A stretch of 64,000 bases of DNA. It comes from a bacterium. Its GTDB lineage: Bacteria; AUK180. Positions 1,530 to 52,509 of this stretch are shown piece by piece. Below the pieces are notes generated by a model that worked only from the letters and a program-made list of their open reading frames with translations, had not been told where the DNA came from and did no database searches. The stretch lies in NCBI GenBank assembly GCA_023133295.1, contig JAGLWT010000116.1, positions 13,218 through 77,217 on the forward strand. The letters are read 5' to 3'. Every line of letters starts with the position of its first letter. The stretch's first letter is position 1. The position numbers were made by a program, and so were the translations under genes.

Positions 1530-1541
1530 GATTTCGAAGAA

Positions 1542-22913: not shown

Positions 22914-22924
22914 ATCAATAATCT

Positions 22925-34083: not shown

Positions 34084-34788
34084 TCATTTTTTCAGTCTTT
34101 CGCTGAAGAGGACAAAAAAGGCATAAATAGCATCTATCCAATGAATTTTGCTTTCCTCGACCTTTCTCGGAGTATAAGATATCGGGATCTCACAGAATCT
34201 ATAATTGAATTTAAAGATCTTTGCTGTGATCTCACACTCCATTTCAAATCCGTCATATTTCAGATTCAACGACTCCAGAATGCCTTTTCTGAACACCTTA
34301 TAGCCCGATGCTTCATCTGTAATATTTTTTCCATATAGTATCCGCACCGTCAGATTAATGAGTTTATTCGCCAGGAGCCGGGGAATTGATTTCATTTTTA
34401 CTTTTTTCAAAAATCTTGAACCGTATACAACATCGGCCTGCCCTGCTATGATCGGGAGTAACAAACCGGATATCTCTTCCGGATAATACTCCAGATCGGC
34501 ATCCTGAATAACAACAATATCACCGGAAGACACTTTCAAGCCTTTTTTTATTGAATAACCCTTTCCTCTGTTCACGCGGTTTTCACAAAGGATATCATAA
34601 AGATTGAAGTTCTCTTTCAATATTGCGTTCGAACTGTCTGTCGAACCGTCGTCCACTACGATGACTTCATGTTTAAATGAAAGCTTGGCGATCCGCTCAA
34701 GGACCTTCAGGATAGTTTCCGATTCATTGAAAGCCGGAATGATTATCGAGATCATCGCGTCAAATTCCGCGTTCTTCATATTTCTCAT
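34084..34788 (-). CDS. Family-2 glycosyltransferase, polyprenol-phosphate sugar synthase (Dpm1/ArnC/GtrB)-like
   Basis: ISIIIPAFNESETI, VIVVDDGSTDSS, VVIQDADLEYYPEE (DAD) and GSRF motifs at 234 aa are typical of Dpm1-like GT2 enzymes, which supply lipid-linked monosaccharide donors to GT-C enzymes. Confidence 0.7.
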   Translation of the reverse strand: MRNMKNAEFDAMISIIIPAFNESETILKVLERIAKLSFKHEVIVVDDGSTDSSNAILKENFNLYDILCENRVNRGKGYSIKKGLKVSSGDIVVIQDADLEYYPEEISGLLLPIIAGQADVVYGSRFLKKVKMKSIPRLLANKLINLTVRILYGKNITDEASGYKVFRKGILESLNLKYDGFEMECEITAKIFKFNYRFCEIPISYTPRKVEESKIHWIDAIYAFFVLFSERLKK

Positions 34789-37352: not shown

Positions 37353-40253
37353 TCAGAATTCATGCTGAAGATCCGCGATCTCCATATCGCCCGAGGAATT
37401 GCCGGAAGTAAATCTCAGTAATTTGCCGTCACGGATCTTATATCTTACATAACCCACAGAGAGATCGTAGAAGTTAGTACCGGCCTTATCCTTCAGATAA
37501 CTAAAATCCTTCTGGAATTGAGCAAGTTCCTTGCCCTTGTTGAAATAATCAATATGGAAAAGCATGTCCATGGGCAATGCGAGATTCAGCATATCCTTGA
37601 GTTTGTAATTATACAGAAAGCGTGTGGGCATAAGCACCACATCGACCTTATCGAAATACTGCTTGTATGACATCAATTTATCCACTTCCCCCCTGTCCAG
37701 ATCAGCGGCTAATAAAAACTGTTTTCTTGAGATCTCAATACCCTTTTTCTTCAAGATATAATCGGCCTTAAGTACCATATTATCCTGAAAATAATCCTCT
37801 TTGCCGCTGCTTTCCGGGTATATAGCGTATATCTCAAACACATATTCACTGCTTCCCACTTTCTTACTCTCTTTCAGAATATAATCACCTGCCTTTACCA
37901 CTTCATAGGGTATTTTACTGGACAATAGGGTGTTGCTTACCTTTTGACATGTTTCATATCTGCTTTTTACCCAATAAGCCTGGCCTCTTTCAAGTAAATA
38001 CTCATTATCAGTAGATTTCAAGAAGTCTTCATATGTAGATGCGGATGCTTTTTGCACATTTGTGGGAAGATATACCTTTCCCACGGGATATTCTCTTAGT
38101 ATTGTAGTAACCGCCGAATTATTATCCTGAGAGTAATCCGTCAGGATCAGATCGTCTATGCGGTTGATACCGTAAGACATCAAAATGCTCATGACCACAC
38201 GGTCGGCCTCGTCCCATTCCCTTCTGTTATAGAGAGAATGTTTCCCCGCATTTATCAATACATTTCTCCCCGAAGGCGTTTTGATGAAAACGACATTGCC
38301 TTTGGAAAGGGAGAAGAAGGTTATGTCAACTTCATTATCCCTCTTTGTTGGTATCAGCAGAAGTATGGAGCCCAGAAGTACAATGGCGATTATGATCGCG
38401 GGCAGAAACTTAAATATACGCGCCCTCTTGTCGTGTTTCTGTTTGAATACCGTCAATTTATATTTATAGTCAAGCCATTTACTTTTGATATACGGCAGAT
38501 TGATAATGATAAGCAGCGCTATAAAATAGAATATCAGCCCGCCGAAGGTGAACTTCTTCACATATGGATATGGAAAAGTGGTCGAAAAGAAATGCGCGGA
38601 CTGTATGAAGAGCTTCAACAGCAGATAATTAGCGGCATTGATGAACAGTCCCATATAGATACCGACAACGGGTATCAGAGACAGAATTGCCGCGATCATC
38701 CCCAATTGAACATTGATACCGATGAGGGGTATGGCGATATAATTGGCGTACATACCCGCAATTGGATATCTGCCGAAATAATATGCGGAAAGCGGGATCA
38801 TCATTCCCAGCTGTATCGCGAATTGTGCCGATATAAAGGAGATCAGCCAAGGTGGCATCTTCCTGTAGGATGGAGCGGCAAGTTGCTTTTTTTCCTCAAA
38901 TTTATTGGATAAATACAAAAACACCCCGGAAGCGGCAAAAAATCCCCACAGAAATAGTGAATTAAAGAAATAACTCTTGAAGATGATGATCAGCGCGGTG
39001 AAGGAGGCGAAAACAAAGCAAGCCGCCCAAAAGGTATATCCGATCAGATACTTCTTGAAAATATCATCCAGAAACGGCGTGATAAGGACAAGAGACAGCA
39101 CCGCTCCAAACGATAGAGTAAAGGATGCCTCTCTCAATAGAAGCGGGTTCACAAATAATATCATAAGAGCGGCAACGGAAATACCCACCTCGATCGAGGT
39201 TCGCAGACCCTTGCCGGAAAGTACCCAGGCCATCAGCACGGCACTGTTCATTATTACAGCACGGAGAGTGGATGGCCGTCCGCCGGTGATTATCGCGAAG
39301 ATCACTAAAAAGAGTATTGTAATAACGGCATAAACTCTCCTCGGTACGCCTATCAATGAAAAGATCCCCACAAATAATATCATAAGGATCGTAACATGAA
39401 GCCCCGACACTGCCAGTACATGATTCACGCCCGCCCTTTTGAACTCATCCTTTATCTGATATCGGGCATCGGGCAAGAAGATCCCGTCCATGCCGTATCT
39501 CAGCCCCAGAGTAATACCGCCTAAAAATGCCGACTCCGGGTATTTCACCGTTCTTCGAATGGTCTTCAAGAACTTCTGCTTAATACCCAACGAGAAGGCT
39601 ACAAAGGGATTCTTCTTTGTCAGCTCATCAGGGGTGATGCGTGACGCATCCTTGAAATATGCTGTATAATATACTCCGGTGCTTTCCAGAAATTTTCTAT
39701 AATCAAAGCCGCCCGGATTCGTTGCTTTCTGCGGCCTCTTCAAGTCTGTCTCAAAGGTGATATAGTGGCCGTATGAGAGAAACTCCGGGTATTTGCCTTT
39801 CTTGAACGAATAATTAAGAAGGATCTTCCCCTTTTTTACTTCTTTCGAACGGGCGCCGTTGACCGAGATCTTCAGGGGCTTGATATAAACCCGCATCCTG
39901 TTCTCAAAATATTCGGGCTCTCTGTACACATATCCTTCGACCGTTGCGGATACGAGATCTTCTCCACCGGTAACGGTCAGTATATGCCCTTTTCTGTCAA
40001 TATTCAGAGCATTGTGCGTAAAGGCAAGGCCCAGTACAAATGGCAGAAGGTAAAAAGCCATCAGCATAGGTATCTTCTTGATATAACCCCAGCGCTTATA
40101 GCTATAAAAACCCACAGCTACAGCCGCGAGAAGAATCGCGGCAGAGAGGGCAAAAAAGATAAGCGGAGAGGCCAAAGGAAAGACGCCGAAACTGATGAGG
40201 ATGCCGAGGACAAAGAACAATGTAAAGAGATAGAGTTTATTTTCCCAATACAT
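37353..40253 (-). CDS. comEC: ComEC/Rec2-family DNA internalisation channel with N-terminal DUF4131-like region and a degenerate C-terminal metallo-beta-lactamase domain
   Basis: Competence domain signature AGVNHVLAVSGLHVTILMILFVGIF...RPSTLRAVIMNS. The C-terminal MBL-like fold has DDLILTDYSQDNNSAV where canonical ComEC has LVLTHxDxDHxGG, so the HxHxDH metal ligands are missing. Confidence 0.75.
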   Translation of the reverse strand: MYWENKLYLFTLFFVLGILISFGVFPLASPLIFFALSAAILLAAVAVGFYSYKRWGYIKKIPMLMAFYLLPFVLGLAFTHNALNIDRKGHILTVTGGEDLVSATVEGYVYREPEYFENRMRVYIKPLKISVNGARSKEVKKGKILLNYSFKKGKYPEFLSYGHYITFETDLKRPQKATNPGGFDYRKFLESTGVYYTAYFKDASRITPDELTKKNPFVAFSLGIKQKFLKTIRRTVKYPESAFLGGITLGLRYGMDGIFLPDARYQIKDEFKRAGVNHVLAVSGLHVTILMILFVGIFSLIGVPRRVYAVITILFLVIFAIITGGRPSTLRAVIMNSAVLMAWVLSGKGLRTSIEVGISVAALMILFVNPLLLREASFTLSFGAVLSLVLITPFLDDIFKKYLIGYTFWAACFVFASFTALIIIFKSYFFNSLFLWGFFAASGVFLYLSNKFEEKKQLAAPSYRKMPPWLISFISAQFAIQLGMMIPLSAYYFGRYPIAGMYANYIAIPLIGINVQLGMIAAILSLIPVVGIYMGLFINAANYLLLKLFIQSAHFFSTTFPYPYVKKFTFGGLIFYFIALLIIINLPYIKSKWLDYKYKLTVFKQKHDKRARIFKFLPAIIIAIVLLGSILLLIPTKRDNEVDITFFSLSKGNVVFIKTPSGRNVLINAGKHSLYNRREWDEADRVVMSILMSYGINRIDDLILTDYSQDNNSAVTTILREYPVGKVYLPTNVQKASASTYEDFLKSTDNEYLLERGQAYWVKSRYETCQKVSNTLLSSKIPYEVVKAGDYILKESKKVGSSEYVFEIYAIYPESSGKEDYFQDNMVLKADYILKKKGIEISRKQFLLAADLDRGEVDKLMSYKQYFDKVDVVLMPTRFLYNYKLKDMLNLALPMDMLFHIDYFNKGKELAQFQKDFSYLKDKAGTNFYDLSVGYVRYKIRDGKLLRFTSGNSSGDMEIADLQHEF

Positions 40254-40402
40254 TATTTTTCTTCCAAAAACCCGTAATACGATTCATTGGACCTGAGATT
40301 TCCCTCGATCGTATAATTCTTATCAAAGGCCAGAACCAGGATCGCGGCAATCGCAATGATAATTATCCCTATTAAAATAAAGGCCTTCTTTCCTTTTTTC
40401 AT
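40253..40402 (-). CDS. Small single-pass membrane protein (49 aa), not in the supplied ORF track
   Basis: The reverse complement reads MKKGKKAFILIGIIIIAIAAILVLAFDKNYTIEGNLRSNESYYGFLEEK. Its ATG overlaps the stop of the 663-aa gene as TAATG. Its TAA overlaps the ComEC ATG as TAATG. It fills the only gap in the operon exactly. Confidence 0.5.
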   Translation of the reverse strand: MKKGKKAFILIGIIIIAIAAILVLAFDKNYTIEGNLRSNESYYGFLEEK

Positions 40403-42393
40403 TAACTTCTCCAGTCAAGATAGAATTTGAAAGCCCTCTGCGGAACCGTATTATCAGCCCTTGCCGAATTATCCTGAATATAATACCTTCTTTTGTACCC
40501 TATTTTCAGCTTCAGATTCTTCCACCAGAGTTTTCTGCTGTAATCAACCGACCATTCACGGTATTCCTCAGAGGTGGATGAGTCCGACTTCCTGTAGATA
40601 TTATTATCCGTGGATTTAAACGAGAACAGGAAGTTACCCAGGGCGGGTTTCCAATTCGCCTTCAGCTGATAGGATGCATTGGCCTTTCTCTGAGGCAGAG
40701 AATGTTCCATATAGGTATTGAAGCGGTAAATGCCTGTCAGGCGCAATTTCTCGGACAAGTTGTAATTAAAAGTCACATAAGTCCTTGTGCTTTTGTCCGA
40801 TTCGGAATAATCCGTAATATATGAATCATTCAAGTTCCTTGCTACATCATTATCTTTATACCGCTGCGTCACCGCCATATCAACAAGCGGCGTTATCGGA
40901 TATTGAAATTTTATCGAGCCGTCGAAATTGGTCTGAAGAGTTGAATAATACCTCCAGATATCCGCCTTGGGAGTGATCTCCAATTTTCCCAATTTTAAAA
41001 GCGCATCGAATTTAATACCCCTTTCGTTCTGGGCGGAAAGCTCCGCAGGAGATTCATATGTGGCGAATGTATATGAATAGGGATTTTCAAATTCCCTGTG
41101 GAAATCCCTGTAAATAAAATTGATCCGCGCGGTTTTCTTTTTCATGGTCATCTTCAATAAGAAGCCGTGAGCGCCTGATTCCAATTGCCCGAATTCCGCC
41201 TGAATAGCCGACTTTTTAAAAGGAGTCCACCGCATATTCAATCCCCATACCCATGCATCGAACATGCCTTCAGAGTAATTATTCGGCTTGTAGAGGTCAG
41301 AGGCATAGATCTCCTTATTGTGGTAAACGGTCATTCCGATAAAATTGTCCTCTCCGCCGATGCGCATATGCCCGCCGAAAATGGTCTTGTTAACATAATT
41401 CGGAATGGAAAGAGCGATCGTATCTTCGTCAAAATCGCTCTCTGAATACGCCGATTCATCCGCGCTGAAATCGGCCGAACTGACCAGAAGATGTGAATAC
41501 TGATAGAGCTTGTCCTGTATCTGTGACGCGAAGATGAATATCTCCGCCGGTCCCAGCACCGTTCGCATACCGGCACCAAGGAGGTTCAGATTGAAATCGG
41601 AAGTAACATCACTGGAACGGTCGCCCTTGAAGCCGTACAGATTCTTGTTATCGGATTCATTAAAGACCACGCCAAGACCGAAGCCCGCCATATAATTTCC
41701 CGTGATCAATTGGAAGTTCTTTGTATTCCAGTTTATAAATACCTTAGGCAGAGGCCATACCGTTTTCTTCGGGTCAACGATAACTTCGCCCGGCTGAAGG
41801 AAGATCTCGCCGTTTTCATCATAGGTAACAGGCCCGTCATATTCCTCAAAGCTGTATGTGGCGTATCTGCGTTCCTGAAGAATTCCTATATCCAATACCT
41901 TTCCGAGACGGAAGCGGTATTTGAACTGTACATAAGGCGTCTCTTCTGATTTGGTCGTGGAAGAAACCTCGTCCCTGAATTTAAAGTTGAGGTCGGTTTT
42001 CCTTTTCAATACCTTCTTACCCTTGACCTTCTTTATCTTTACCGGGGGAATGATGCGCATAAATCCCTCAACAAAACTGAAGTCTGTACGCCCGAGGATC
42101 CTTTTGAGGGGCTTGTCATCTTTAAATGGCCGGTTCTTGATGATCTCATCAGCGATCTCAAGGGTTACCTTGGGAAGCCGCAGCAGCTCACTCTTAGGAG
42201 CGCTATTGACCTCTATAGGATTTGAGTAAAGTTCCCAAAGCATAATATACTGCTCTTGATCGATATCTCCGGACTCGTACAGATCGGCGATCTCGTCTTC
42301 CGTAGATATGGGTATCGAAAGATCATAATCCTGAGCAAATGCAAAAGAGGCCAAAAACAAAACGATCAGAAATAGTATTCTACCTTTCATCAT
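40402..42393 (-). CDS. Secreted or outer-membrane protein with an N-terminal ComEA-like helix-hairpin-helix motif followed by a large beta-rich (putative beta-barrel) domain
   Basis: Signal peptide MMKGRILFLIVLFLASFAFA. Then IEVNSAPKSELLRLPKVTLEIADEIIKNRPF, a ComEA-type HhH (NxNxA..eLxxLPGIg.xxAxxIixxR). Then about 550 aa of alternating beta-strand-like sequence rich in Tyr/Phe/Asn. Its start overlaps the stop of the upstream gene as ATGA. Confidence 0.5.
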   Translation of the reverse strand: MMKGRILFLIVLFLASFAFAQDYDLSIPISTEDEIADLYESGDIDQEQYIMLWELYSNPIEVNSAPKSELLRLPKVTLEIADEIIKNRPFKDDKPLKRILGRTDFSFVEGFMRIIPPVKIKKVKGKKVLKRKTDLNFKFRDEVSSTTKSEETPYVQFKYRFRLGKVLDIGILQERRYATYSFEEYDGPVTYDENGEIFLQPGEVIVDPKKTVWPLPKVFINWNTKNFQLITGNYMAGFGLGVVFNESDNKNLYGFKGDRSSDVTSDFNLNLLGAGMRTVLGPAEIFIFASQIQDKLYQYSHLLVSSADFSADESAYSESDFDEDTIALSIPNYVNKTIFGGHMRIGGEDNFIGMTVYHNKEIYASDLYKPNNYSEGMFDAWVWGLNMRWTPFKKSAIQAEFGQLESGAHGFLLKMTMKKKTARINFIYRDFHREFENPYSYTFATYESPAELSAQNERGIKFDALLKLGKLEITPKADIWRYYSTLQTNFDGSIKFQYPITPLVDMAVTQRYKDNDVARNLNDSYITDYSESDKSTRTYVTFNYNLSEKLRLTGIYRFNTYMEHSLPQRKANASYQLKANWKPALGNFLFSFKSTDNNIYRKSDSSTSEEYREWSVDYSRKLWWKNLKLKIGYKRRYYIQDNSARADNTVPQRAFKFYLDWRS

Positions 42394-43868
42394 TCACCTC
42401 CCTGGCCATTATCAACAGCGGGATCGTATTCTCCCGCTTTTATCATATTTCTCATATTCTCAAAGGTCTTGGGACCTATTCTGGGAACATTCATAATATC
42501 CTCTATGTTCTTAAATCCGCCGTTTTGCTTCCTGTAGGAAAGAATGTTCGCCGCTGTCTTCACTCCTACGCGCGGAAGTTTCTGCAGCTCCGCACTGTCC
42601 GCGGAGTTGATATCTATTAACGGTCCGCTGTAAGAGGTTTTCGAGGAGGTGGAAGTGGCCGAGGAACTGCGTGACGGCACAATTTGAGTCGATGACTCAT
42701 ATTTACTGCCAACGGTAATATGGGACCGTATTTTTTCAACGGTCTTAACGCCTATTCTAGAGACATTCTGCAGGTCTTCCACTCTTCTGAACGGCCCGTT
42801 CACCTTCCGGTATTCCACTATACGCTCTGCTGTCTTGCTGCCTATGCCCGGGATCGCGGAAAGCTCCTCCGCATTTGCAAGATTAATATTTATCCTGCCG
42901 TTGATCACCGAGAGTTCGGGTTTGGATTCTTTGTTTCCGAGTCCAAAGGCAAAGGTATGTGTGGCGCCCAGCTCCGGATGTACCTTCAAAGCATATGAAA
43001 CTGCCATTCCGCCGCCGTAAATTCCGAGGCCGGCAGAATAGGAAAAACGCTCCGAGTGAAGATATTCAATGCCGCCAAAGAGAGCAAAGTTATCTGTCAT
43101 ATCGTACTTGATACCAAAATGATATTCGGAGTAAAGGTCCCGTTTAGCCGCGAAATTTTCCAGATATGCGTCATAGTCGGCAAAATCACCGACCGCTTCT
43201 TCTATCTCCGCTTCCTCGGCATCGGTATAACTCCCGAGTCCGTAAGTATGTTTCAGAAACGATGCGGGAATATTCGCGATAAGGTTGAAATAGATATTTA
43301 ATTGGGTAAAAGGGGTATATGAAACCCCTATGCCGACATCCCTCGCCATGTATTCCTGGCCGATATACGGTGCTGAAACATTTCTGAATCTTGCTCCGAA
43401 ATAAAGATCGTTATTTACAAAGAGCACCATTCCCATATCCAGGGCAAGTGTGGATGCCGAACCGATCTCGTCGATAACGACACTCATATACTTCCCCTTG
43501 AAACCAAGCGCGAAATTGGAGCCCACATTGAATGCGCCGGCAAATTGTATTTGCTGTTCCGCATACAGCCATGAGCCGAATTTTACAAGGTTCAGGCCCA
43601 TTGTCATCGAGCCGAAGCGCTTGATATAATTTGCTGAGGTGTTTGCCAGTTCATCCATGCCGTATAGCCGGGATGTGGTAAAATTCAAATGGACATTCTC
43701 CAGATAGGCCAGCATGGCGGGATTATTGTATATCGCCTCAGGTCCCATAAGCACCAGATTGGCTCCACCGGTAGCAAGGTTGAGGGGCATATTCCCCTCA
43801 AATTCAAAGGCAGTCCATCCATTGATGGCTAGAATGATCGAGAAAACTACTATTATTATTTTTTTCAT
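42390..43868 (-). CDS. Fusion protein: FadL/PorV-like outer-membrane beta-barrel (NPA motif) plus two C-terminal ComEA-type HhH DNA-binding domains
   Basis: Signal peptide. GGANLVLMGPEAIYNNPAMLAYLEN N-terminal hatch-like motif, paralogous to the proteins at 13832..14782 and 46947..47831. About 320 aa of barrel-like sequence. Then ININLANAEELSAIPGIGSKTAERIVEYRKVNGPFRRVEDLQNVSRIGVKTVEKI and IDINSADSAELQKLPRVGVKTAANILSYRKQNGGFKNIEDIMNVPRIGPKTFENM, two full ComEA HhH domains separated by a Ser-rich linker. Confidence 0.6.
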   Translation of the reverse strand: MKKIIIVVFSIILAINGWTAFEFEGNMPLNLATGGANLVLMGPEAIYNNPAMLAYLENVHLNFTTSRLYGMDELANTSANYIKRFGSMTMGLNLVKFGSWLYAEQQIQFAGAFNVGSNFALGFKGKYMSVVIDEIGSASTLALDMGMVLFVNNDLYFGARFRNVSAPYIGQEYMARDVGIGVSYTPFTQLNIYFNLIANIPASFLKHTYGLGSYTDAEEAEIEEAVGDFADYDAYLENFAAKRDLYSEYHFGIKYDMTDNFALFGGIEYLHSERFSYSAGLGIYGGGMAVSYALKVHPELGATHTFAFGLGNKESKPELSVINGRININLANAEELSAIPGIGSKTAERIVEYRKVNGPFRRVEDLQNVSRIGVKTVEKIRSHITVGSKYESSTQIVPSRSSSATSTSSKTSYSGPLIDINSADSAELQKLPRVGVKTAANILSYRKQNGGFKNIEDIMNVPRIGPKTFENMRNMIKAGEYDPAVDNGQGGE

Positions 43869-43877
43869 GGCAGCCCC

Positions 43878-46800
43878 CTACATCCTTTTCCCAATGGCAA
43901 CGACTTCTTTCTTATAAATAGATTTCGTTTCATTTCTCAATTCGATATATAGAATATACACACCCATTGGCAGCGGCCGGTTGCGATTATCATCGCCGAT
44001 CCATTTCACAGAGAAAGGCCCCGGCGGAAGAACTGTCTTTTCCGATAATGTCTTTACTTCTCTTCCGGCAATGTCATATACACGCAGCGTGAGCACTCCC
44101 TCGGAAACAACATGCAGGGAGATCTCGGTATATAATCTATTCGGATCGCTGCCGTCATTAACAAAGCTCCTCGGGGAGATCTCGATCTGCGTAATATTGC
44201 CGGCGGGTATCTCCGTTTCATCGCAAGGCCTTCCCATCGTGGGGTTTTCCGTGATCGTCCAATCGGCAAGCGTGTTCGTATCCGTAAATTCCGCATCACG
44301 CGTTATAGATGATTCTTCCTCCACATTATTTGATCTGATGGCATTGGTAGCGGCATAGATCCAATCGTAAATATATCCGCTGTCCGGCTGCTCGCCAAGA
44401 GGATAATCGGGATACTTCGCCATATTGGGGAAAAATTTATAGATCTCTCCGTCCCAATGATATGCTCCTAATTTGGGATCGGATGAAAAATATACCTCAT
44501 AGAAATCGCTGTATTCAATATAAGAGATATCTATCAATTCTGAAACGACCCATGTCGACGCGGCGGGAACCACCTGTCCGTCGGCTATAAGATCGCCGTT
44601 CTCGTCAAAGGGGAATATTTGTTCTTCTGAATTTCTTTCAGCCCATACAACGGCATCTTTGATATTTCCGGAAAAATCCCGGAACTCAAGGTTCTCATCC
44701 GTGCTGGAAAGCGAGAGTTTCGAAAGATAGATCGTTAATATTCCGTCACTTCCCGCGGTAAGTTCGCTGTCATTTTCATTTCCTACGGTGATAATGACAA
44801 ATTCACCGGTTTTCAAGGTCGTTCCGGGCTGAATTATCGCAATTACGCTGTCCGTCAGCATGAAACAACCACCGACATCAACACCTGCTCCGGAATTGCC
44901 GTCATCCTTGCAATAAAGCTCTATCCAATCCGGAAATCCTGAGGGTGAGTAAAAATAAACCTCTGAGATCACGATATCCGTTTCGGCGGGCAATGTATCG
45001 ATCGGATGGCCGTAACCCGGCGTAACGACCAGGGTATTCTTCCAGTCAACTTTATCATTGGTATCCGTATTGTAATAATCTCTGACAATAGAGCCCTTTG
45101 AAAAATCCGATGAAACACAGTCGATCTCTTCGCCGTCAACGGGAGAGCCGTAGCCTATGTTCCATTGGCCGACAGCAAAAGCTTCCTCAAAGTCATCATC
45201 GGACAGGGAGCCGCCCTGATCCGCCCAGCAGACAAGGTCTATCAATTCGCCATTCGGCGTAAATATGCCCATTTGCTCGTCCGAATCGGTTATCCCCGTA
45301 TCGGCGGTCGTCACAAAATACGATGCCTTGGTCAGGGGAAGTTTCCAGTCATCCGCATTATCATATATCAATAATCCGTAATCTCCTGTGCGGAAGATAC
45401 CGGATGAAAGTTTTTTATCGGCTTTTTCGTTCAGGTCCGTAATGGAGGCGCGGGTGCCGTAAGTGGATATCGAATCAAGATCATCAAGATAAAATCCTTT
45501 AAGGTCGATACCGTTTCCATTATTACCGTCATCGATCATGTAAAACTCCACAAAATCCTCGCCATATGTCCCGATAGAATCTACTTCGGTAATTAGGATC
45601 ACAGGGTCCTTTACCGTTATGGACTCTAAATAGTCCGAAACAGAATTTCCGGTGTCCGAGATCGCATTTGCTTTTTGATCCGCTCCCGTGACCCAGAAAC
45701 CTATGATCGAGAGATTGGGTATATCCACGGTAGAACCCTTGGTAAGGTCAGCTCCGCCTTTATAAACCAGGGTATTTCCCCATATAATGCCGTCTTCGCT
45801 GCCGTCAGCGCCGGAGCTGTAGGCGAGTGTTACCGTGCCGGAATCTACGAATACTCCAGTAGAGGTCTTGATCTCATACCATAAACTCAAGGTAGATGTA
45901 TCTTCAATACCGCCCTCTTCTGAAAGTATCAGCTCAAACGATGTGGCTGAAAGAGAAACACGGGGGAAATCTCCCGAAGGAGACATGGAAACAGGAGAGG
46001 GGCCCGTAATATCTATCGGCAAGACCGTAAGGTCCGCGGAAACAATACCATCCACTCCTGTATTTTCCGGTGTTATTTCAATAACTCCCGAAGACAGGCA
46101 TCCGCCGAAATCAACCGTACCCTCACCATTGATCAAGGTCAGCGCGATCGTGTCAGTGCCTCCCGAAAAATGTCCGGTTCCGGCAGGAGAAGCGGATATC
46201 GTAATATCTAGTGTCGGAGACGAGGTATAGACGGAGTAGTTCTCATCAAGAAGCTTAACCGTGACCGTCGTGGTCTCCGGCGTACCCCCGGTAACTTCGA
46301 TCCTTGTGGGGTATACAAAAGCACGGAGATTGATCGAGGACTCGGTAGGCCCGACCGAATTGGGGTGGCGCGGCGTGCCGTAGATAGGGTTGCCCAGATA
46401 ATCGGTGCCGTATATGGTAATAAGATCATTATCCGCCCAATTGGAAGAATCGTTGCCGTCCTTTCCGAGAATGATCTTTTCCATGGAAACGCCGCCCGAC
46501 TGGCCGGCGAACCATCCATCTGAGCAGTCGACTTGATCAATGAGATTAGCGGAGTTATCATACAGGCGGAGGTTTTCTCCGTCATTTGAAAGTTTGCTGT
46601 AGCCAAGGTCTTCAGAATCGCTTTCGATATCGGCGATCGCCTGTTTTACCGGCTCGGTACTGCTTCTGTATTCTATCAGATAATATGCTCCCGATCTGAT
46701 CGTGGTTGTGTTAGCAGTGGTAAGGTCAACAATTATTCCACCGCTATCCCAAATATACCATCCGGTAAGATCGATATCGGAACCCGTGGGATTGTAAAGC

Positions 46801-46940
46801 TCGATCCATTCGTACCCGCTCTGGGCAATGGTCCCGCTCCATGAAAGCTCTGAAATAACAACATCACCGCTTGAAGCGGAATGTATCGCAAGGGGCAGTA
46901 TCGAAAGGATGATCAACAATGCTAATATTTTTTTCATCAT
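43878..46940 (-). CDS. Large secreted multi-domain protein (1020 aa) with at least three lamin-tail-domain (LTD) repeats and a T9SS C-terminal sorting domain
   Basis: Signal peptide. LTD signatures: GDVVISELSWSG...GYEWIELYNPTGSDIDLTGWYIWD; PVILITEVDSIGTYGEDFVEFYMIDDGNNGNGIDLKGFYLDD; DIVISEVYFYSPSGFPDWIELYCKDDGNSGAGVDVGGCFML. C-terminus LTLRVYDIAGREVKTL...GVYILYIEL...KKEVVAIGKRM matches a Por_Secre_tail. Confidence 0.65.
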   Translation of the reverse strand: MMKKILALLIILSILPLAIHSASSGDVVISELSWSGTIAQSGYEWIELYNPTGSDIDLTGWYIWDSGGIIVDLTTANTTTIRSGAYYLIEYRSSTEPVKQAIADIESDSEDLGYSKLSNDGENLRLYDNSANLIDQVDCSDGWFAGQSGGVSMEKIILGKDGNDSSNWADNDLITIYGTDYLGNPIYGTPRHPNSVGPTESSINLRAFVYPTRIEVTGGTPETTTVTVKLLDENYSVYTSSPTLDITISASPAGTGHFSGGTDTIALTLINGEGTVDFGGCLSSGVIEITPENTGVDGIVSADLTVLPIDITGPSPVSMSPSGDFPRVSLSATSFELILSEEGGIEDTSTLSLWYEIKTSTGVFVDSGTVTLAYSSGADGSEDGIIWGNTLVYKGGADLTKGSTVDIPNLSIIGFWVTGADQKANAISDTGNSVSDYLESITVKDPVILITEVDSIGTYGEDFVEFYMIDDGNNGNGIDLKGFYLDDLDSISTYGTRASITDLNEKADKKLSSGIFRTGDYGLLIYDNADDWKLPLTKASYFVTTADTGITDSDEQMGIFTPNGELIDLVCWADQGGSLSDDDFEEAFAVGQWNIGYGSPVDGEEIDCVSSDFSKGSIVRDYYNTDTNDKVDWKNTLVVTPGYGHPIDTLPAETDIVISEVYFYSPSGFPDWIELYCKDDGNSGAGVDVGGCFMLTDSVIAIIQPGTTLKTGEFVIITVGNENDSELTAGSDGILTIYLSKLSLSSTDENLEFRDFSGNIKDAVVWAERNSEEQIFPFDENGDLIADGQVVPAASTWVVSELIDISYIEYSDFYEVYFSSDPKLGAYHWDGEIYKFFPNMAKYPDYPLGEQPDSGYIYDWIYAATNAIRSNNVEEESSITRDAEFTDTNTLADWTITENPTMGRPCDETEIPAGNITQIEISPRSFVNDGSDPNRLYTEISLHVVSEGVLTLRVYDIAGREVKTLSEKTVLPPGPFSVKWIGDDNRNRPLPMGVYILYIELRNETKSIYKKEVVAIGKRM

Positions 46941-46946
46941 ATACTC

Positions 46947-47831
46947 CTACCACCGATACCCAAGGCCGGCTGATACCGTTCCCGGTAAAAGCGATCCGAA
47001 CCCGTATGAGACATCGATCTCCAGCTTGTTCAATCCGATCTGAACACCGAAGAGAATATTTCTTGTGGTATCATTCAATGCATCACTCGCGCCGAATCTC
47101 AATTTTATCCATTTAGTAATATTAAAAGCTAAGCCCGAATTCAAGATCATTGAAGATTCCCTGATAACCGCCTGTGTCAAGAGGGTCAGCGCCATGCCTC
47201 CGTCACCCATTTGCCGTTTATATCGAAAGCCGATACCTCCGGATATAGAAGGGAACGCGCCTTCCTGTTCAAATTCCAGCTTCGTACCCCAATTATTTAC
47301 AAAAAGTCCTATCAGAAGCTTTTTCATCTTAAAGGCAAGGCCGAGGTCAATTAAAAAAGAGTCCGCTGTATATGTATCGATACGGCTGAAAAGGTATTTT
47401 ATATTTACACCGGCATATGTATTCTGGCCGATGGCATCGCCGAAAGAAAGCACAAGTCCAAGGTCGGAAGAATGGAATTGCCCGGTAACCGTGCCTATCT
47501 CATCCCGGGAATCCTGATATCCCCAATTGCCGTAAATGGCAGAGATCCCGACATTGCCGAAATTCTCAAGATACACCGCCGTTGATATTAAAGAGACATC
47601 CATCTCCTCATAATATTTTCTGTAGCTGGTTTTAAAATAATTCCAGCCCGAGATAGGCATCAATGCCGGATTGACCAGTATGGAACCAAAATCATCAATA
47701 TCAACGCCGAGAACGGACCCGCTGCCGCGTGCTCCCGAAGTCGGGTCAATATTAAAAACATTGGAAGAGCCCATTGCGGCAATGCAAACCGAGATCAAGA
47801 GAACCATTATGAATATTACAGATCTCTTCAT
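46947..47831 (-). CDS. Outer-membrane beta-barrel protein, FadL/PorV-like (NPA motif). Putative partner of the adjacent LTD cargo proteins
   Basis: Signal peptide MKRSVIFIMVLLISVCIAA. GSILVNPALMPISG NPA motif. Beta-strand alternation. C-terminal ...GLGYRW. Paralog of the proteins at 13832..14782 and the N-terminal domain at 42390..43868. Confidence 0.5.
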   Translation of the reverse strand: MKRSVIFIMVLLISVCIAAMGSSNVFNIDPTSGARGSGSVLGVDIDDFGSILVNPALMPISGWNYFKTSYRKYYEEMDVSLISTAVYLENFGNVGISAIYGNWGYQDSRDEIGTVTGQFHSSDLGLVLSFGDAIGQNTYAGVNIKYLFSRIDTYTADSFLIDLGLAFKMKKLLIGLFVNNWGTKLEFEQEGAFPSISGGIGFRYKRQMGDGGMALTLLTQAVIRESSMILNSGLAFNITKWIKLRFGASDALNDTTRNILFGVQIGLNKLEIDVSYGFGSLLPGTVSAGLGYRW

Positions 47832-47834
47832 GAT

Positions 47835-50800
47835 CTACCTCACCACCGAGAACTTAACCATCGCGGTGAAGCTATCCGCTTTTACCAGGCCGAAATATAT
47901 CCCCGCGGGGATCTTTCTCCCGTATCTGTCCTTCAAATCCCAACTTATCTGATGGAATCCCGCAGAAAGCACAGCATCGTGTATCTCAATCACCTTTCTC
48001 GCATCCAATGTCAAGATCGTCAGCGTAACATTGGATTCTTCCAGTATGTTTATCTCAAATGTTATCGTGTCGACATCCGGAGTTGCCGGATTCGGATATG
48101 GAGTATATATATTATTCCCGTCAAATGAGGTGTCAATGAAATACTCCAGCAGGTCAACACATGTGAATTCAACTATATGCTTTCCCGCCTCGGAGGCCAG
48201 GGTCAATGTGAATGACGCCGAGCCGTCGGTGCCGGTCCGGGCGGAGGATGGGGCGATAGACGCACCCAAAGGAGTGTCGATAAGAGAGGTGGCGACATCC
48301 GCACCATACAATCCCAATCCGGTATCAGAAGTGATATAGACCAAGATATCCCGATCCTTCCCGGGAGCGGTATGCGGATCTTCCGCGGGGTCAAATGTCA
48401 TTACCGCGGGAGAAAGGACATCAAATTCAGGCGAATTCAGTTCAACAAGGTCTGTACCGTTCTCTAAAATGCTTATCCCGAATTCGTATATTCCTTCCGC
48501 ATCAGGGAAATCATAACCATTGAAATCTATGCTCACCGAGCTTGCCGCGGTTATCCCGGGAATGGTAATGGTGGAGCCGGAAACCGTATAGGCGACCGTA
48601 TTGGAAGCATCGACGGTTACCGTCAGATTTGCCAATGTGGGTTGAGTAAAACTTGAATGAACAACAATATACAGATCATCGTCTCCATCCAGCTTGGGAT
48701 AACCTACCGTATAATCAATACCCAGATCTCCATTGCCGCCTTGGCAAAGCGGGACATTGGGAGTTTTTGAAATGCCATAAGAGCCGGAAACCGCAGAATC
48801 CACATTGCCGAAAGGCGAGGAATTGCCTGATTCATCAAGGGCCTTCACCGAAATATAATATGTTGTGCCGGCAGGCAGCATCGTCAGTGCATGCTCCTCT
48901 GTCTGAGTCGGCAGAAGCGGTGTTATCCCCGAAGTATCGTATTTATCCGCAGCGATAAAGTCAGCGTCATCAGAGATCGGGGCGGTGGAATAAGCGATCT
49001 CATAACTATCACATTGAGATACGCCAAGTCCGTTCTCGCCCACTGCGGTAAAGTTTATTCTGATACCGCCGATCGTAGGATGGGAATATGCGCTAAGGTC
49101 ATTGATCACCGATGGCGATCGATTATCGATGGTATTGAAAGAGAAGAGATAATCTCCACCGGGAGCGCCGTCATTATCTCCGTCAAGGCCGTTGCCTGAT
49201 ATATCCATCGCTCTAGAGTAAACGGTAATATCATATGAGGTGTCTTCTGTAAGCGGAGCCGTAAGGGTCATCGTTAATGTCTCATTGCCGGCATCCCAGG
49301 AAAGCGTATATGCTACAGCCGGCACTATCTCAAGCGATAAATCCACCGATACGGTATTCATTTCCTCTGAGAATGTGATGATAATATCGGTCACTGTATC
49401 TATATTCACTCCCGAATCGATCGGAGATGTGTATAGAACGGTCGGTGAGGCATAATCTCCACAGCTTGTACTGTAATTTGAGTTTTCAGCACAGGGTGTG
49501 GCATTAAGCGGATTATTGTCGGCATCAAGGCCGTTTATTGTAATTCCGTCATTGGAACCCCAGTTACCGGCGACCGAACCGCCGACACATGGATCTATTC
49601 TCTCCATTGTGAAATAATTAGGGGATCCCGTACCTGCGTACCAACCGGCACTACAATCGACCAGATCAACTGTCACATTGGATGAATTCTTTAAAGTTAT
49701 CGTCACACCGGTGTTGCTCAAACTGAGAGATGTATCCACAAGTCCGCCCGCAACATCATTCACGGTATCCTCGGAATTTTCAATAAGGTAATATCCGAAA
49801 GCGGGAATAGTTCCCGAAAGCGTTTCCGTCGAGAACCCGACTCCCTGAACATACCAGCCGGTAAGGTCGATCCCCTCACCTGTCGGATTGTACAGCTCTA
49901 TCCACTCATCGGAAGATGAGTGCAATGTACCGCCGAAGGCGACTTCATTTACAACAACCTTTCCGGTCATTGACTCATATACTTCGATCAAGGGAGATGC
50001 TCCGATCGCCGAAAGCGTCCCTGTGCCTTTTGATCTTACGGTATAGGTATATGTTCCGAGCGTGTCGCACATAGCACCGGGCGAACCCGAAGACATATCT
50101 CCATAAATGAATACTAATGTATTTCCGGTATCGAGCGTAGTAATATCCGCTATTATCTCCCAACCAGTGGTCTCATTTCCCGTAATGGAAGCGATCGATG
50201 CCGCGGCATCGCCGGAAAGGGAAAGATATCCTTCCGATGCAGGAGCTCCGTCCTGCGGCTGTGACCAATTCGCGGGAATATATAGCGCGACCTGCCCGCC
50301 TGCCATATCAAGCGATGCGGTATAGATCACATTTACGCTCTGATGATTATCCTTGAGAATATTAGAGGGATATGCGACCGCCGTACCGGTACCGTCACCG
50401 TATTGCGATGTCTGAAAACTGAATGTATATGTATCTCCGCCCGAATCATCCACTGAAGCGGAGTCAGCCAGCGTATTGCCCGCTACATCCGCAACTATGG
50501 TCTTATCGATCTCAATATAATATGTCGCCCCGAATGACAGTGTATTATGTGTGATCGTAAGTGTTTGTGTAGTATTTGACCATGCATATCCTTCTCCTCC
50601 GGGTGAGGGTGATATAATTATCCCCAAAGTGGAGGTATCCGCCATTTCCTCGTCAAAATCTATTGTGATATCGGCCAAGGGGTTGACCGCCGACGCGCCG
50701 TTAACCGGGGCCGTCGCGGTTATGGTCGGAGCTTGCGTATCCGCAGCTGCACCGCCGCAGGTCGAAACCATACAGGAATTGTCCTGACCTGGAGTACCGT

Positions 50801-51371
50801 GAATGGCATTTGAACCAGAATCCGCTCCATTTATGGTAACTCCATCATTTGTAGCCCAATTGGAACACACATTTCCGGGCGAGCACGGGTCTATCCTTTC
50901 CATCGTATATTCTCCGGTAGTATTTCCTGCACACCATGCCCCGCTATTGTCATCAGCAACATCGATCACATTGCCGGTAGCGTCCTGGCCATCGTATAAG
51001 ATAATACTGTCTCCGCCGGCGTTCATTCCTATCGTAAGGTCCCAGATCTCAATTGTAGCTCCCGAAGTGAATACTCCGGCATCATTTGCGTATATCAGAT
51101 AGCCATTGGCGGGAATGATAGTGGTATTGTTTCCGTCGGCTGCTGAAATATTCAGGACAACCCCGGTATCAGCGCCATAGATCGACCAAGCGGCTATATC
51201 GATCGGTGCATCTGTGGTATTATAGAACTCTATCCATTCATCACTTGCCGAATCCGTGGTTCCGTCATAGGCGATCTCATTGATGACAACATCACCGGGA
51301 GTCGCCGCTTCCGCGATCTGCATAGATATCAAAAGCAAGGCGGCAATAAATATGATCGTTATTTTCTTCAT
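47835..51371 (-). CDS. Large secreted protein (1178 aa) with two lamin-tail-domain (LTD) modules, Ig-like/beta-rich repeats and a T9SS C-terminal sorting domain
   Basis: Signal peptide MKKITIIFIAALLLISMQIAEA. LTD signatures: GDVVINEIAYDGTTDSASDEWIEFYNTTDAPIDIAAWSIYG and GKVVVNEVAFGGTLHSSSDEWIELYNPTGEGIDLTGWYVQG. C-terminus VTLTILTLDARKVIEIH...ISWDL...GIYFGLVKAD...KFSVVR matches a Por_Secre_tail. Confidence 0.65.
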   Translation of the reverse strand: MKKITIIFIAALLLISMQIAEAATPGDVVINEIAYDGTTDSASDEWIEFYNTTDAPIDIAAWSIYGADTGVVLNISAADGNNTTIIPANGYLIYANDAGVFTSGATIEIWDLTIGMNAGGDSIILYDGQDATGNVIDVADDNSGAWCAGNTTGEYTMERIDPCSPGNVCSNWATNDGVTINGADSGSNAIHGTPGQDNSCMVSTCGGAAADTQAPTITATAPVNGASAVNPLADITIDFDEEMADTSTLGIIISPSPGGEGYAWSNTTQTLTITHNTLSFGATYYIEIDKTIVADVAGNTLADSASVDDSGGDTYTFSFQTSQYGDGTGTAVAYPSNILKDNHQSVNVIYTASLDMAGGQVALYIPANWSQPQDGAPASEGYLSLSGDAAASIASITGNETTGWEIIADITTLDTGNTLVFIYGDMSSGSPGAMCDTLGTYTYTVRSKGTGTLSAIGASPLIEVYESMTGKVVVNEVAFGGTLHSSSDEWIELYNPTGEGIDLTGWYVQGVGFSTETLSGTIPAFGYYLIENSEDTVNDVAGGLVDTSLSLSNTGVTITLKNSSNVTVDLVDCSAGWYAGTGSPNYFTMERIDPCVGGSVAGNWGSNDGITINGLDADNNPLNATPCAENSNYSTSCGDYASPTVLYTSPIDSGVNIDTVTDIIITFSEEMNTVSVDLSLEIVPAVAYTLSWDAGNETLTMTLTAPLTEDTSYDITVYSRAMDISGNGLDGDNDGAPGGDYLFSFNTIDNRSPSVINDLSAYSHPTIGGIRINFTAVGENGLGVSQCDSYEIAYSTAPISDDADFIAADKYDTSGITPLLPTQTEEHALTMLPAGTTYYISVKALDESGNSSPFGNVDSAVSGSYGISKTPNVPLCQGGNGDLGIDYTVGYPKLDGDDDLYIVVHSSFTQPTLANLTVTVDASNTVAYTVSGSTITIPGITAASSVSIDFNGYDFPDAEGIYEFGISILENGTDLVELNSPEFDVLSPAVMTFDPAEDPHTAPGKDRDILVYITSDTGLGLYGADVATSLIDTPLGASIAPSSARTGTDGSASFTLTLASEAGKHIVEFTCVDLLEYFIDTSFDGNNIYTPYPNPATPDVDTITFEINILEESNVTLTILTLDARKVIEIHDAVLSAGFHQISWDLKDRYGRKIPAGIYFGLVKADSFTAMVKFSVVR

Positions 51372-51595
51372 ATATTTCCTCTCGAACCCTCATTGAGTTC
51401 ATCTTTTATTTTTTTCATTTTCTCCAGACGGGCCTTCGTCTCGTCCGCGTCAATGGAAATGTCAACATTCAGAACATCTCCTTCCTTAACCCCTTGCGGA
51501 AGATGCGCGATGGGGATGAGCATTTCTCCGCCACGGTCAAGGACCACAACGGCGAGCTCTTCTTCAAATCTGTCTATAACTGCTGTGAGAATCAT
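51368..51595 (-). CDS. Small DUF3006-like protein (75 aa)
   Basis: MILTAVIDRFEEELAVVVLDRGGEMLIPIAHLPQGVKEGDVLNVDI resembles the DUF3006 consensus (IDRFEGdfAVlel.dG..l.vP...LP.gakEGDVL). Its start overlaps the stop of the upstream LTD gene by 4 nt. Confidence 0.4.
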   Translation of the reverse strand: MILTAVIDRFEEELAVVVLDRGGEMLIPIAHLPQGVKEGDVLNVDISIDADETKARLEKMKKIKDELNEGSRGNI

Positions 51596-51849
51596 AGGTC
51601 TCCTCCATATTTATTTATTATTTTGCGTAGTTTGGGATTGCGCGCCTGCGGCGCAGGCTGTGAACTCAAGAGAAACATCGATAATGTTGTCTTTCTCATA
51701 TATTTTCAGTTAAATTCTAACCTTTTTGAGAATGAAATGCAAATAAATATGGTTCTTTATTATCCTTATAGTGTTCTGACAGACTATATAAGGCAATGCA
51801 AGACAAAGAAATACTAAATACCAAAAACGATTTCACTTACAGCGGAAAT

Positions 51850-52260
51850 ATTGGTAGAATGAATTATCACAGGGACAGAGATTGACCTGTCCTCCGTCAT
51901 TATCGTTATTGGGCGTGTCACCTTGGAAACCCCGATTACATCGGGGACCCGATAACCCATCTTTCTTGCTGTTTGTCAGCTTGAGTGTAACGAAAGATCC
52001 ATCTTTATTTCCTTCTCTCCAGCTTTTAACCTTGAACATTTGAACTTTTGAACAATCCTATCCGTTTCACACGAAAACATTCTCCACACATCTTTGATTG
52101 TCATTCCAGCGAAAGCGGGAATCCATCTGATATTTGCTTCTTGTGTTTTCCCCACTATTCGTTGTTCACTATACTTAAGCCTATCAACCATTTCTACACT
52201 ATTCATTATATTCTGTCATCCTGAGCTTCTCCGCGAAGGATCCTTCCCCCCGGAAGTTCG
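51850..52260. repeat. Repeat-rich intergenic island: reverse-complement copies of modules D and B, palindromic 'gtcattccagcgaaagcgggaatcc', 'gtcatcctgagcttctccgcgaaggatcc', and module G
   Basis: About 51866-51896 is the reverse complement of 'atgacggaggacaggtcaa(g/t)c(c/t)ctgtccctg' (compare 3768-3800). About 51971-52003 is the reverse complement of 301-333. The 52097-52124 unit is an inverted repeat (gtcattcc...gggaatcc). About 52150-52210 matches 10283-10312. Confidence 0.6.
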
Positions 52261-52509
52261 CTAATTCAATTCAAATAAAAAATAAAGACAAGTGATCTTA
52301 TCTTAATTTGCAACAAATGCAATTTATCCCGTAGCTGCTTGGAGGTATCGGGACAACCATCCCCGTCAGTAGTCCCCGTCAGTACCCAGTCAAGCCTTCT
52401 TCTCAATTACGATATGGAATATTTTTTCAAGAAAGCTTTTTTCGTTATCCATCAAAACCCCCGACATTTGTATAGAAAATCTGGAGACCGGAGAGCAGCG
52501 CCTGTATTT

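Follow-up and report, generated by a model that had tools for sequence, protein, structure and literature searches.

A conserved comEC operon with putative lamin-tail surface proteins, PorV/PorQ-like barrels and barrel-fused ComEA modules, a candidate variant of DNA-uptake machinery

Dedicated outer-membrane barrels can hold proteins on the bacterial cell surface, as described for the T9SS (type IX secretion system) of Porphyromonas gingivalis, in which PorU and PorZ are held by PorV and PorQ (PMC5562754), and for proteins with a type-B C-terminal sorting domain (CTD), which bind PorP-like barrels encoded beside them (PMC9143113, PMC12618676). Our understanding of how DNA passes this membrane comes chiefly from pilus/secretin systems; more recently, an alternative that depends on TonB was described in Bacteroidota, where pilus-independent uptake involves a surface binder, a barrel, a helix-hairpin-helix (HhH) protein and ComEC (PMC8459023, PMC12478041). 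We describe here an operon which unites components of both kinds. It lies in a stretch of 64,000 nucleotides (referred to as the window) from a bacterium of the GTDB lineage AUK180 (assembly GCA_023133295.1, contig JAGLWT010000116.1, forward-strand positions 13,218 to 77,217). The operon combines two large lamin-tail domain (LTD) proteins with T9SS-type sorting domains (LTD-A and LTD-B), PorV/PorQ-family barrels, barrel-fused ComEA modules and ComEC. Our tentative reading, based on analogy with these systems and given slightly less than even weight, is that LTD-A and LTD-B are exported by means of their CTDs, stay on the cell surface bound to cognate barrels and make up the outer arm of an apparatus for DNA uptake.

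The cassette resembles the barrel-held proteins PorZ-PorQ, PorU-PorV and the type-B CTD/PorP/SprF-like pairs (PMC5562754, PMC9143113, PMC12618676) in having a Sec signal, a C-terminal beta-sandwich sorting domain, an adjacent PorV/PorQ-family barrel gene and matched subtypes of the two, and its CTDs find their best matches in the retained C-terminal ends of PorU and PorZ. It differs from them in its LTD and Ig-like passengers, the fusion of one barrel to ComEA, its location in a comEC operon, barrels that score below the curated PorQ/PorV cutoffs, and the presence of the module in metagenome-assembled genomes (MAGs) labelled Elusimicrobiota, outside the phyla with reported T9SS. With RA0C_RS04915/RS04920, the HhH protein RS02645 and ComEC of Riemerella anatipestifer and with DdbCD of Bacteroides thetaiotaomicron (PMC8459023, PMC12478041) the cassette shares the logic of surface binder, outer-membrane barrel, periplasmic HhH and ComEC, the clustering of the genes near comEC and the lack of pilus genes in the locus. 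The barrel of those systems is a TonB-dependent transporter and the binder a DUF5689 lipoprotein lid, whereas the cassette encodes PorV/Q-like and HhH-fused barrels and LTD-CTD proteins; TonB-dependent receptor and DUF5689 families are absent from all cassette proteins in Pfam and NCBIfam scans, which places the cassette outside the DdbCD/RA0C_RS04915-04920 definition. Canonical Gram-negative competence (type IV pilus with PilQ secretin, soluble ComEA, and ComEC; PMC8459023) likewise involves ComEA-type HhH and ComEC, which the cassette has in one operon, but in the cassette the ComEA modules are not free proteins and form part of outer-membrane barrel fusions, and no pilus, secretin or T9SS core genes were seen within the window (gene content was read in the 64-kb window and in 10-kb flanks of relatives). 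LTDs, finally, have been described in ExeM of Shewanella (PMC6085458) and in the haloarchaeal Hvo_1477 and ComA-like metallo-beta-lactamase (MBL)+LTD proteins (PMC5118699), which are secreted, envelope-associated and tied to extracellular DNA, and in which the LTD directly follows the signal peptide as in LTD-A and LTD-B. Those proteins have EEP, thermonuclease or MBL domains, whereas none was detected in LTD-A or LTD-B, which instead have multiple LTDs and T9SS-type CTDs.

The eight-gene cassette and its conservation

A sequence-only reading of the window had placed two giant LTD proteins at positions 43878-51371, inside a comEC operon. Both proteins are present, and a gene between them was overlooked: the interval consists of three minus-strand open reading frames (ORFs), not two, namely LTD-A, a 294-aa ORF encoding a PorQ/PorV-like barrel, and LTD-B. 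ComEA had been correctly noted in the operon, and what had escaped notice is that the ComEA protein is fused to a PorV/PorQ-like barrel. The cassette has the following features (window coordinates):

51368..51595, minus strand: DUF3006 protein, 75 aa, without signal peptide; first gene of the cassette, overlapping the start of LTD-A by 4 nt
47835..51371, minus strand: LTD-A, 1178 aa
47838..48119, minus strand: C-terminal sorting domain of LTD-A, type-A-like, last residues KFSVVR
46947..47831, minus strand: PorQ/PorV-family outer-membrane beta-barrel, 294 aa, with signal peptide and C-terminal GYRW; 3 nt downstream of LTD-A
43878..46940, minus strand: LTD-B, 1020 aa
43881..44168, minus strand: C-terminal sorting domain of LTD-B, 'IGK' subtype, last residues VVAIGKRM
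42390..43868, minus strand: PorV/PorQ-family barrel with two ComEA-type HhH modules, 492 aa; 9 nt downstream of LTD-B
40402..42393, minus strand: ComEA-type HhH with a large uncharacterised outer-membrane beta-barrel, 663 aa
40253..40402, minus strand: single-pass membrane peptide, 49 aa; between the HhH-barrel gene and comEC
37353..40253, minus strand: ComEC/Rec2, 966 aa, with DUF4131, Competence domain and C-terminal region

The eight genes are co-directional and separated by gaps of 3-9 nt or overlapping, and their order is kept in four species-level lineages of unclassified MAGs whose flanks are unrelated to each other. The placement inside the comEC operon is therefore borne out, and its unusual combination with ComEA and ComEC is conserved rather than accidental. 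The DUF3006 gene likewise heads the cassette in L001, L004, L007 and L086. Scans for promoters and terminators over 36.5-53 kb found as many as in shuffled sequence, so that only spacing and synteny support the operon inference. Upstream of the cassette, a spacer of 0.9 kb (51596-52509) has no convincing ORF and no inverted repeats; its sequence resembles what we take to be a common short interspersed repeat, with spurious translations such as 'IPAFAGMT' and 'VIPAKAGIH'. A perfect palindrome of 15 nt upstream of the DUF3006 gene (51644-51658) was considered as a regulatory candidate and dropped, as it is missing in the 96% relative.

Protein identities of the cassette between lineages lie at 96-98%, falling to 39-61% in more distant lineages; every carrier found is an uncultured MAG. 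The window itself is nearly identical to a metagenome scaffold in ENA, recognised by a 663-aa protein of the same sequence; an exact-sequence look-up of LTD-B had no match. Ratios of nonsynonymous to synonymous substitution (dN/dS) against the 96% relative were 0.04-0.10 for the six genes long enough to measure, with LTD-A evolving fastest (0.098, against a 93%-identical ortholog) and LTD-B at 0.056. For the 49-aa peptide dN/dS was 0.27, and the DUF3006 gene showed no nonsynonymous change. These low values indicate that the cassette genes are real and under purifying selection. Recent insertion of the LTD genes into a comEA-comEC operon was considered and rejected, since lineages at 46-61% identity still have the same gene order and the GC content is even throughout the cassette.

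Domains, sorting signals and barrels of the cassette proteins

Cleavable-looking Sec signal peptides, read from the sequences, are present at the N-terminus of LTD-A and LTD-B. The LTD family PF00932 (Pfam gathering cutoff 34.3 bits) was found above cutoff in both proteins, with 107.5 bits (E 6e-31) over two stretches of LTD-A and 80.7 bits (E 1.2e-22) over two stretches of LTD-B. The domain layouts, in residues, are as follows (Pfam for LTD-A, Pfam and hhalign for LTD-B):

LTD-A, up to LTD2: signal peptide 1-22; LTD1 ~23-200; Big_5 211-321; unannotated beta-rich spacer ~326-470; LTD2 ~471-645
LTD-A, after LTD2: second Big_5; weak fn3 786-853; weak Big_1-like region; CTD 1085-1178
LTD-B, up to LTD2: signal peptide 1-21; LTD1 ~22-197; two Ig-like spacers ~198-445; divergent LTD2 ~446-640
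LTD-B, after LTD2: divergent LTD3 with a long insert or tail ~641-915; CTD ~925-1020

When scanned alone, the third LTD of LTD-B (~652-765) gave a weak match below cutoff (22.7 bits, E 1.3e-4) and the middle one (~446-600) gave no Pfam match. Profile-profile comparison with hhalign tied LTD2 to LTD3 (98.5%, E 2e-15) and LTD1 to LTD3 (92.8%), from which it follows that the five LTDs noticed by eye are real and that two of them are divergent: three are clear Pfam matches, one is weak and one is recognized by profile-profile comparison only. The regions between the LTDs showed only Ig-like signals in Pfam (Big_5, weak fn3, weak Big_1 and weak Ybfg_C), and no nuclease, phosphatase, OB-fold, glycosidase or protease family was found in Pfam and NCBIfam scans of LTD-A, LTD-B and the inter-LTD segments. 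The LTDs are thus confirmed by profile searches, the spacers, for which a check for EEP, SNase or OB folds had been suggested, match only Ig-like families and neither glycoside hydrolases nor proteases in these scans, and the earlier remark that no nuclease motif is obvious agrees with the lack of any detected catalytic domain. LTD-A and LTD-B are accordingly described as multi-LTD proteins with predicted Sec export, and by these scans they fall outside the LTD extracellular nucleases of the ExeM/NucH type, which have an LTD and a nuclease domain in the same protein. By themselves they are further members of a known and already annotated kind; the 96% ortholog of LTD-B, which is found in GCA_023144005.1 and in an ENA scaffold of 1.44 Mb, is named 'lamin tail domain-containing protein' by NCBI.

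No solved relative came up when the PDB was searched by sequence with LTD1 of LTD-A or the family profile of LTD-B. The AlphaFold2 (AF2) model of LTD-B is poor (predicted local distance difference test, pLDDT, 42.6) and nearly all-beta, with moderate confidence only in residues 312-445 and the CTD. Its Foldseek matches are beta-sandwich folds only, including the FlgD hook cap, which gives weak qualitative support in view of the low-confidence model. The CTD of the same low-confidence model matched a 75-residue chain of a T9SS translocon complex (8gl8_D; target TM-score, TMt, 0.66), a chain which we take to be a cargo CTD, a reading that is not part of the Foldseek output.

In whole-protein scans, TIGR04183 (Por_Secre_tail, curated cutoff 23 bits) scored 20.3 bits in LTD-A and 13.6 bits (E 0.048) in LTD-B, and Pfam PF18962 matched neither protein. 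The CTD of LTD-A scanned alone reached 25.1 bits with TIGR04183 and matched the C-terminal end of PorU with E 2.6e-7. The assertion that both proteins end in Por_Secre_tail domains is thus upheld only in part at the curated cutoff, for the isolated CTD of LTD-A and not by the whole-protein scores. For both proteins the best whole-protein CTD match is the C-terminal end of the PorU model of NCBIfam. Within an alignment of the CTD family (n=24), TIGR04183 was detected at E<=0.1 in all 24 members, the PorU end in 23/24 and the PorZ end in 21/24. Two subtypes can be distinguished. The first is canonical-looking and ends in K[MF]xxx[KR]; it includes the CTD of LTD-A, which aligns with canonical YPNPF...GIYF CTDs of Cloacimonadota proteins. 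The second ends in VVAIGK(K/R)(M/L) and includes the CTD of LTD-B, over which Pfam reports a weak FlgD_ig match (949-998); it also ends LTD proteins of ~800 aa in Cloacimonadota and a CBM_4_9 protein that precedes barrel-ComEA in Elusimicrobiota loci. Profiles of both CTDs match, at the extreme C-terminus, dozens of Cloacimonadota proteins that are otherwise unrelated, which is the behavior of a sorting signal. Judged by sequence, LTD-A and LTD-B carry T9SS-type CTDs, through which they are likely to be displayed on the cell surface.

The 294-aa barrel encoded after LTD-A scored 82.8 bits (E 2.3e-23) with NF033711 (T9SS_PorQ, curated cutoff 220 bits), 77.6 bits (E 1.2e-21) with NF033709 (PorV_fam, 90 bits) and 18.0 bits with NF033710 (250 bits), in each case below the cutoff, and had no match in Pfam. 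Its sequence places it as a relative of the PorQ/PorV family and not as an ortholog of PorQ or PorV. The 492-aa protein encoded after LTD-B consists of a barrel (~1-320) and two ComEA-type HhH modules (~325-386 and ~430-490). HHH_3 matched with E 1.4e-45 over two stretches, and TIGR00426, the ComEA HhH repeat region, was well above its cutoff (123.9 versus 53.1 bits). The full-length comEA model TIGR01259 stayed below its cutoff (124.3 versus 152.35 bits), because the N-terminal part is a barrel and not the usual ComEA N-terminus. The HhH region matches the ComEA structures 8dss and 8dfk in the PDB. Five of six members of this family matched NF033709 PorV/PorQ (best E 9.4e-16), and the family link between the PorQ-like and the ComEA-fused barrel came from NCBIfam scans of family members and from a broader hidden Markov model (HMM).

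The next gene encodes a protein of 663 aa with a ComEA-type HhH (~58-101) followed by ~540 residues of barrel (~125-663) without a Pfam family. The HhH is a weak HHH_3 match (E 9e-5) and aligns to the ComEA HhH region with 93% in hhalign. Two homolog searches on this protein recovered the lineage of the window only, apart from one distant match added by the second search, for which the query alignment included Elusimicrobiota sequences; with so few homologs no deep alignment is available for structure prediction. A barrel-only profile searched against 1.84 billion cluster representatives identified 61 proteins at E<=1e-3. HHH_3 was present in 54 of the 60 members scanned, though the query did not contain the HhH region, and no Pfam barrel family was found in these 60 beyond three weak porin matches. 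No solved relative of the barrel was found by sequence search of the PDB. The AF2 model (pLDDT 51) shows a helical N-domain followed by ~24 long strands, and Foldseek returned only large outer-membrane barrels (SlpA, LptD, TonB-dependent transporters, MtrB, ushers) with low TM-scores, so that the modelled fold is compatible with a 'large outer-membrane barrel' and with nothing more specific. The HhH-fused large barrels thus form a small uncharacterised family, which would be a direct candidate for an outer-membrane DNA pore.

ComEC matched PF03772 with 132.9 bits and PF13567 (DUF4131) with 83.5 bits, and scored 159.6 bits with TIGR00361 (cutoff 190). Its C-terminal region (residues ~630-966; 37353-38366) had no Lactamase_B or other Pfam match. 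This region reads LTDYSQDNNSA, and LTDYSDDNFSA and LTDLSDENASA in two orthologs, at a position where we presume that an HxHxDH metal-binding motif would be expected. The MBL motif of ComEC therefore looks degenerate, and in this lineage ComEC may lack the nuclease activity presumed for it. The DUF3006 protein (PF11213, 74 bits, E 1e-20) is predicted to be cytoplasmic and has weak S1-like OB similarity (S1_2, E 7e-4); we found no literature on DUF3006. The 49-aa peptide is 98% identical in L001 and 48% identical in L004/L009.

Related loci and surroundings of the cassette

A smaller outer module was found, in GTDB species genomes and a metagenome scan, in contigs mostly labelled Elusimicrobiota (L028, L039, L065, L089, L090, L091/L096 and L099), and in part in L020, L023 and L056. 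It consists of two gene groups separated by a few kb: in one, a 285-aa protein with signal peptide, LTD and CTD comes directly before a PorQ-like barrel; in the other, a CTD protein of ~320 aa precedes a barrel-ComEA fusion, after which comes an HhH-large-barrel protein. In the window lineage and at least seven other loci the cargo gene adjoins a barrel gene and the subtypes of CTD and barrel co-vary: the LTD-A-type CTD always precedes the stand-alone barrel, and the LTD-B-type CTD always precedes the ComEA-fused barrel. In these MAGs labelled Elusimicrobiota (L028, L039, L065, L089-L091 and L099) we observed T9SS-like CTD proteins paired with PorQ/PorV-, FadL- or PorP-like barrels near barrel-ComEA and HhH-barrel genes.

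The second group of relatives is found in Cloacimonadota, at loci (L016-L083) that were chosen solely by LTD match. Of the 29 ComM/YifB-like genes found there (ChlI + Mg_chelatase + Mg_chelatase_C; ComM identities 62-100%), 28 have an LTD-CTD gene 5-373 nt upstream on the same strand, mostly at <=20 nt (for example L034:10004-14165), and the gap is ~2.6 kb in the remaining one. ComM is a recombination helicase. A YifB-family ATPase is among the transformation genes found in R. anatipestifer (PMC8459023). The Cloacimonadota proteins (~540-1050 aa) resemble LTD-B in their N-terminal LTD, 'IGK'-type CTD, strong acidity and linkage to a transformation gene; they differ from the cassette in having fewer LTDs, no adjacent barrel-ComEA or comEC, and the cytoplasmic ComM as neighbor. 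Among LTD homologs in general, direct fusions occur with HHH_3, SNase, PLD-type nuclease, OB-fold and MBL domains, and LTDs co-occur with CotH, PKD, DUF11 and glycan-related domains. Neither DUF3006 nor competence genes were present around the genes for the proteins with LTD+HHH_3, LTD+MBL and LTD+SNase (P0038, P0062 and P0019).

The rest of the window is ordinary chromosome with a glycolysis operon, tRNA synthetases, MurJ and envelope-glycan genes. An 841-aa membrane protein (34785-37310) with weak Wzy_C (O-antigen ligase-like) and TPR matches is encoded 42 nt after ComEC; in the 96% relative other genes stand in its place, and it thus lies outside the conserved cassette. The region ~20000-30000 has a GC content of 27-31%, compared to ~42-47% elsewhere. 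In addition to a PMT_2-like glycosyltransferase and a methyltransferase, it encodes large ORFs for which Pfam has no family, and it has the look of an envelope-glycan island, either acquired or evolving rapidly. At 789-3455 and 14790-18035, two LVIVD-repeat proteins, one with a weak CarboxypepD_reg match, and a very acidic ORF of 1081 aa without Pfam family may be further surface proteins, none of which has the CTD of the cassette.

A possible route for DNA and the alternatives

According to the reading which we prefer, LTD-A and LTD-B would cross the outer membrane through their CTDs and would be retained on the surface by docking, with the stand-alone PorQ-like barrel as partner of LTD-A and the barrel with two ComEA modules as partner of LTD-B, in parallel to PorZ-PorQ, PorU-PorV and the type-B-CTD/PorP-like pairs and not by sortase-mediated attachment to lipopolysaccharide (LPS). 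The LTD proteins would contact the substrate outside the cell, possibly via divalent-cation bridging given their acidity, and the substrate would pass through the ~24-strand barrel that is fused to a ComEA-type HhH. In an even-stranded barrel both termini face the periplasm, so a periplasmic position, with a tether to the outer membrane, is expected for the ComEA modules of both the 492-aa and the 663-aa protein; there they could capture DNA which ComEC in the inner membrane would then import.

In favor of this reading are the domain architecture, the tight spacing and conserved order of the genes amid unrelated flanks, the low dN/dS, the PorV/PorQ affinity of both barrels, the co-variation of CTD and barrel subtypes, the CTD matches to the retained ends of PorU and PorZ, the HhH fusion of most large-barrel members, the independent link to comM in Cloacimonadota, the fusions of LTDs with nucleic-acid domains, and the published precedents cited above. 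Architecture, operon membership and conservation are the solid part of it, and docking on barrels and a part in DNA uptake are reasonable extensions. Several observations weigh against this reading. The low confidence of both AF2 models (pLDDT 51 and 43) makes the strand count and the idea of a channel soft. The PorQ-like barrel remains below the NCBIfam curated cutoffs, the ComEA-fused barrel of the window itself has no NF033709 PorV match, and hhalign of four-sequence profiles found no link between the PorQ-like and the ComEA-fused barrel. Outside the window lineage comEC does not adjoin the module, and the CTD protein that takes the LTD-B position in L065 has a carbohydrate-binding CBM_4_9 domain instead of an LTD, which implies that the passenger domains may bind something other than DNA. 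The net charge is -123 for LTD-A (28 K+R versus 151 D+E) and -105 for LTD-B (56 basic and 161 acidic residues), and all 101 LTD homologs are net negative; such extreme acidity makes simple electrostatic DNA binding unlikely. We know of no bacterial LTD that has been shown to bind DNA. The LTD of ExeM improves nuclease activity in vitro and is dispensable in vivo (PMC6085458), and T9SS genes have been reported absent outside the FCB superphylum (PMC11285876), whereas the module occurs in MAGs labelled Elusimicrobiota.

No other ORF of the window is as acidic as LTD-A and LTD-B (within LTD1 of LTD-A, a single basic residue stands against 26 acidic ones), and the HhH region has an isoelectric point of 9.6. 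Bridging of LTDs and DNA by divalent cations is speculation, the role of DNA-capture scaffold that the sequence-only reading had suggested would follow from genomic context, and contact between LTD and DNA is the weakest step of the proposed chain.

The apparatus might serve feeding on extracellular DNA as a source of nucleotides, phosphorus and carbon rather than transformation, a rival on purpose only, which is compatible with the structural model and which we regard as possible though not probable. The window seems to come from an uncultured MAG of sediment or seep type, LTD proteins have been reported in DNA-degradation loci of sediment bacteria (PMC8289736), and the transformation-type outer-membrane transporter of Bacteroidota has diversified into DNA catabolism (PMC12478041). 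Feeding fits less well with a cassette in which Pfam and NCBIfam detect no nuclease, nucleotidase or nucleoside transporter, with the degenerate-looking putative nuclease motif of ComEC, and with comM, the gene of a recombination helicase, as the Cloacimonadota link.

Surface retention could be achieved in a different way if LTD-A and LTD-B were classical T9SS cargo, with CTDs cleaved by a PorU-type sortase and covalent attachment to anionic LPS (A-LPS), forming a DNA- or ligand-binding coat, the PorQ-like barrel being a general T9SS component. The detection of TIGR04183 throughout the CTD family, the isolated CTD of LTD-A above cutoff and the sharing of the domain by many unrelated Cloacimonadota proteins, as for a general sorting signal, agree with this alternative, and type-A cargo of P. 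gingivalis is A-LPS-linked (PMC5562754). Each LTD gene is followed by its own barrel gene, though, and the subtypes co-vary across phyla, which is the mark of cognate pairs rather than of a shuttle used in common; both CTDs are matched best by those of PorU and PorZ, which stay uncleaved, the CTD of LTD-B is divergent and below threshold, and none of SprA/Sov, PorK/L/M/N, the PorU sortase or an A-LPS pathway was seen within the window. Gene pairing and co-variation of subtypes make docking on barrels a better fit than sortase-mediated LPS attachment, and we consider classical cargo unlikely. The covalent display predicted by the sequence-only reading, which was an extrapolation from P. gingivalis type-A cargo, is not supported in that form.

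It is similarly improbable that LTD-A and LTD-B serve as an unspecialized acidic coat of the surface, as an adhesin or as a layer that binds cations, without acting on nucleic acids directly and sharing only envelope assembly or regulation with the barrels: the conserved extreme acidity of all LTD homologs, the company of CotH, PKD, DUF11 and glycan-related domains, the CBM_4_9 protein at the equivalent position in Elusimicrobiota and the cell-envelope glycan genes around the cassette speak for such a coat, and against it stand the ties of LTD-CTD genes to DNA-uptake or processing genes in three settings (the comEA/comEC operon, the barrel-ComEA/HhH-barrel module and comM of Cloacimonadota), a cassette that stays intact while its flanks differ, and the existence of LTD-nuclease and LTD-HhH fusions.

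To return to the barrel-held LTD proteins as the outer arm of DNA uptake, a more far-reaching form of this reading, which we put forward as a rather doubtful possibility, is that the cassette represents a previously undescribed pilus-independent outer-membrane route for DNA built from type-IX-secretion parts. LTD receptors, perhaps cation-bridged to DNA, would sit on PorV/PorQ-like barrels, the ~24-strand HhH-fused barrel would be the channel, and the PorV-like barrel with two ComEA modules would act as a ratchet towards ComEC, with the same outer module in Elusimicrobiota-type bacteria.

The cassette as a whole appears, from its sequence, to be a new variant of DNA-uptake machinery that includes an uncharacterised family of HhH-fused barrels. 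If it works in the way proposed, DNA uptake would have a third architecture beside the two known ones, bacterial lamin-tail domains would gain a defined function in the cell, and the cargo-barrel pairing of T9SS style would prove to have been recruited for a non-secretory task.

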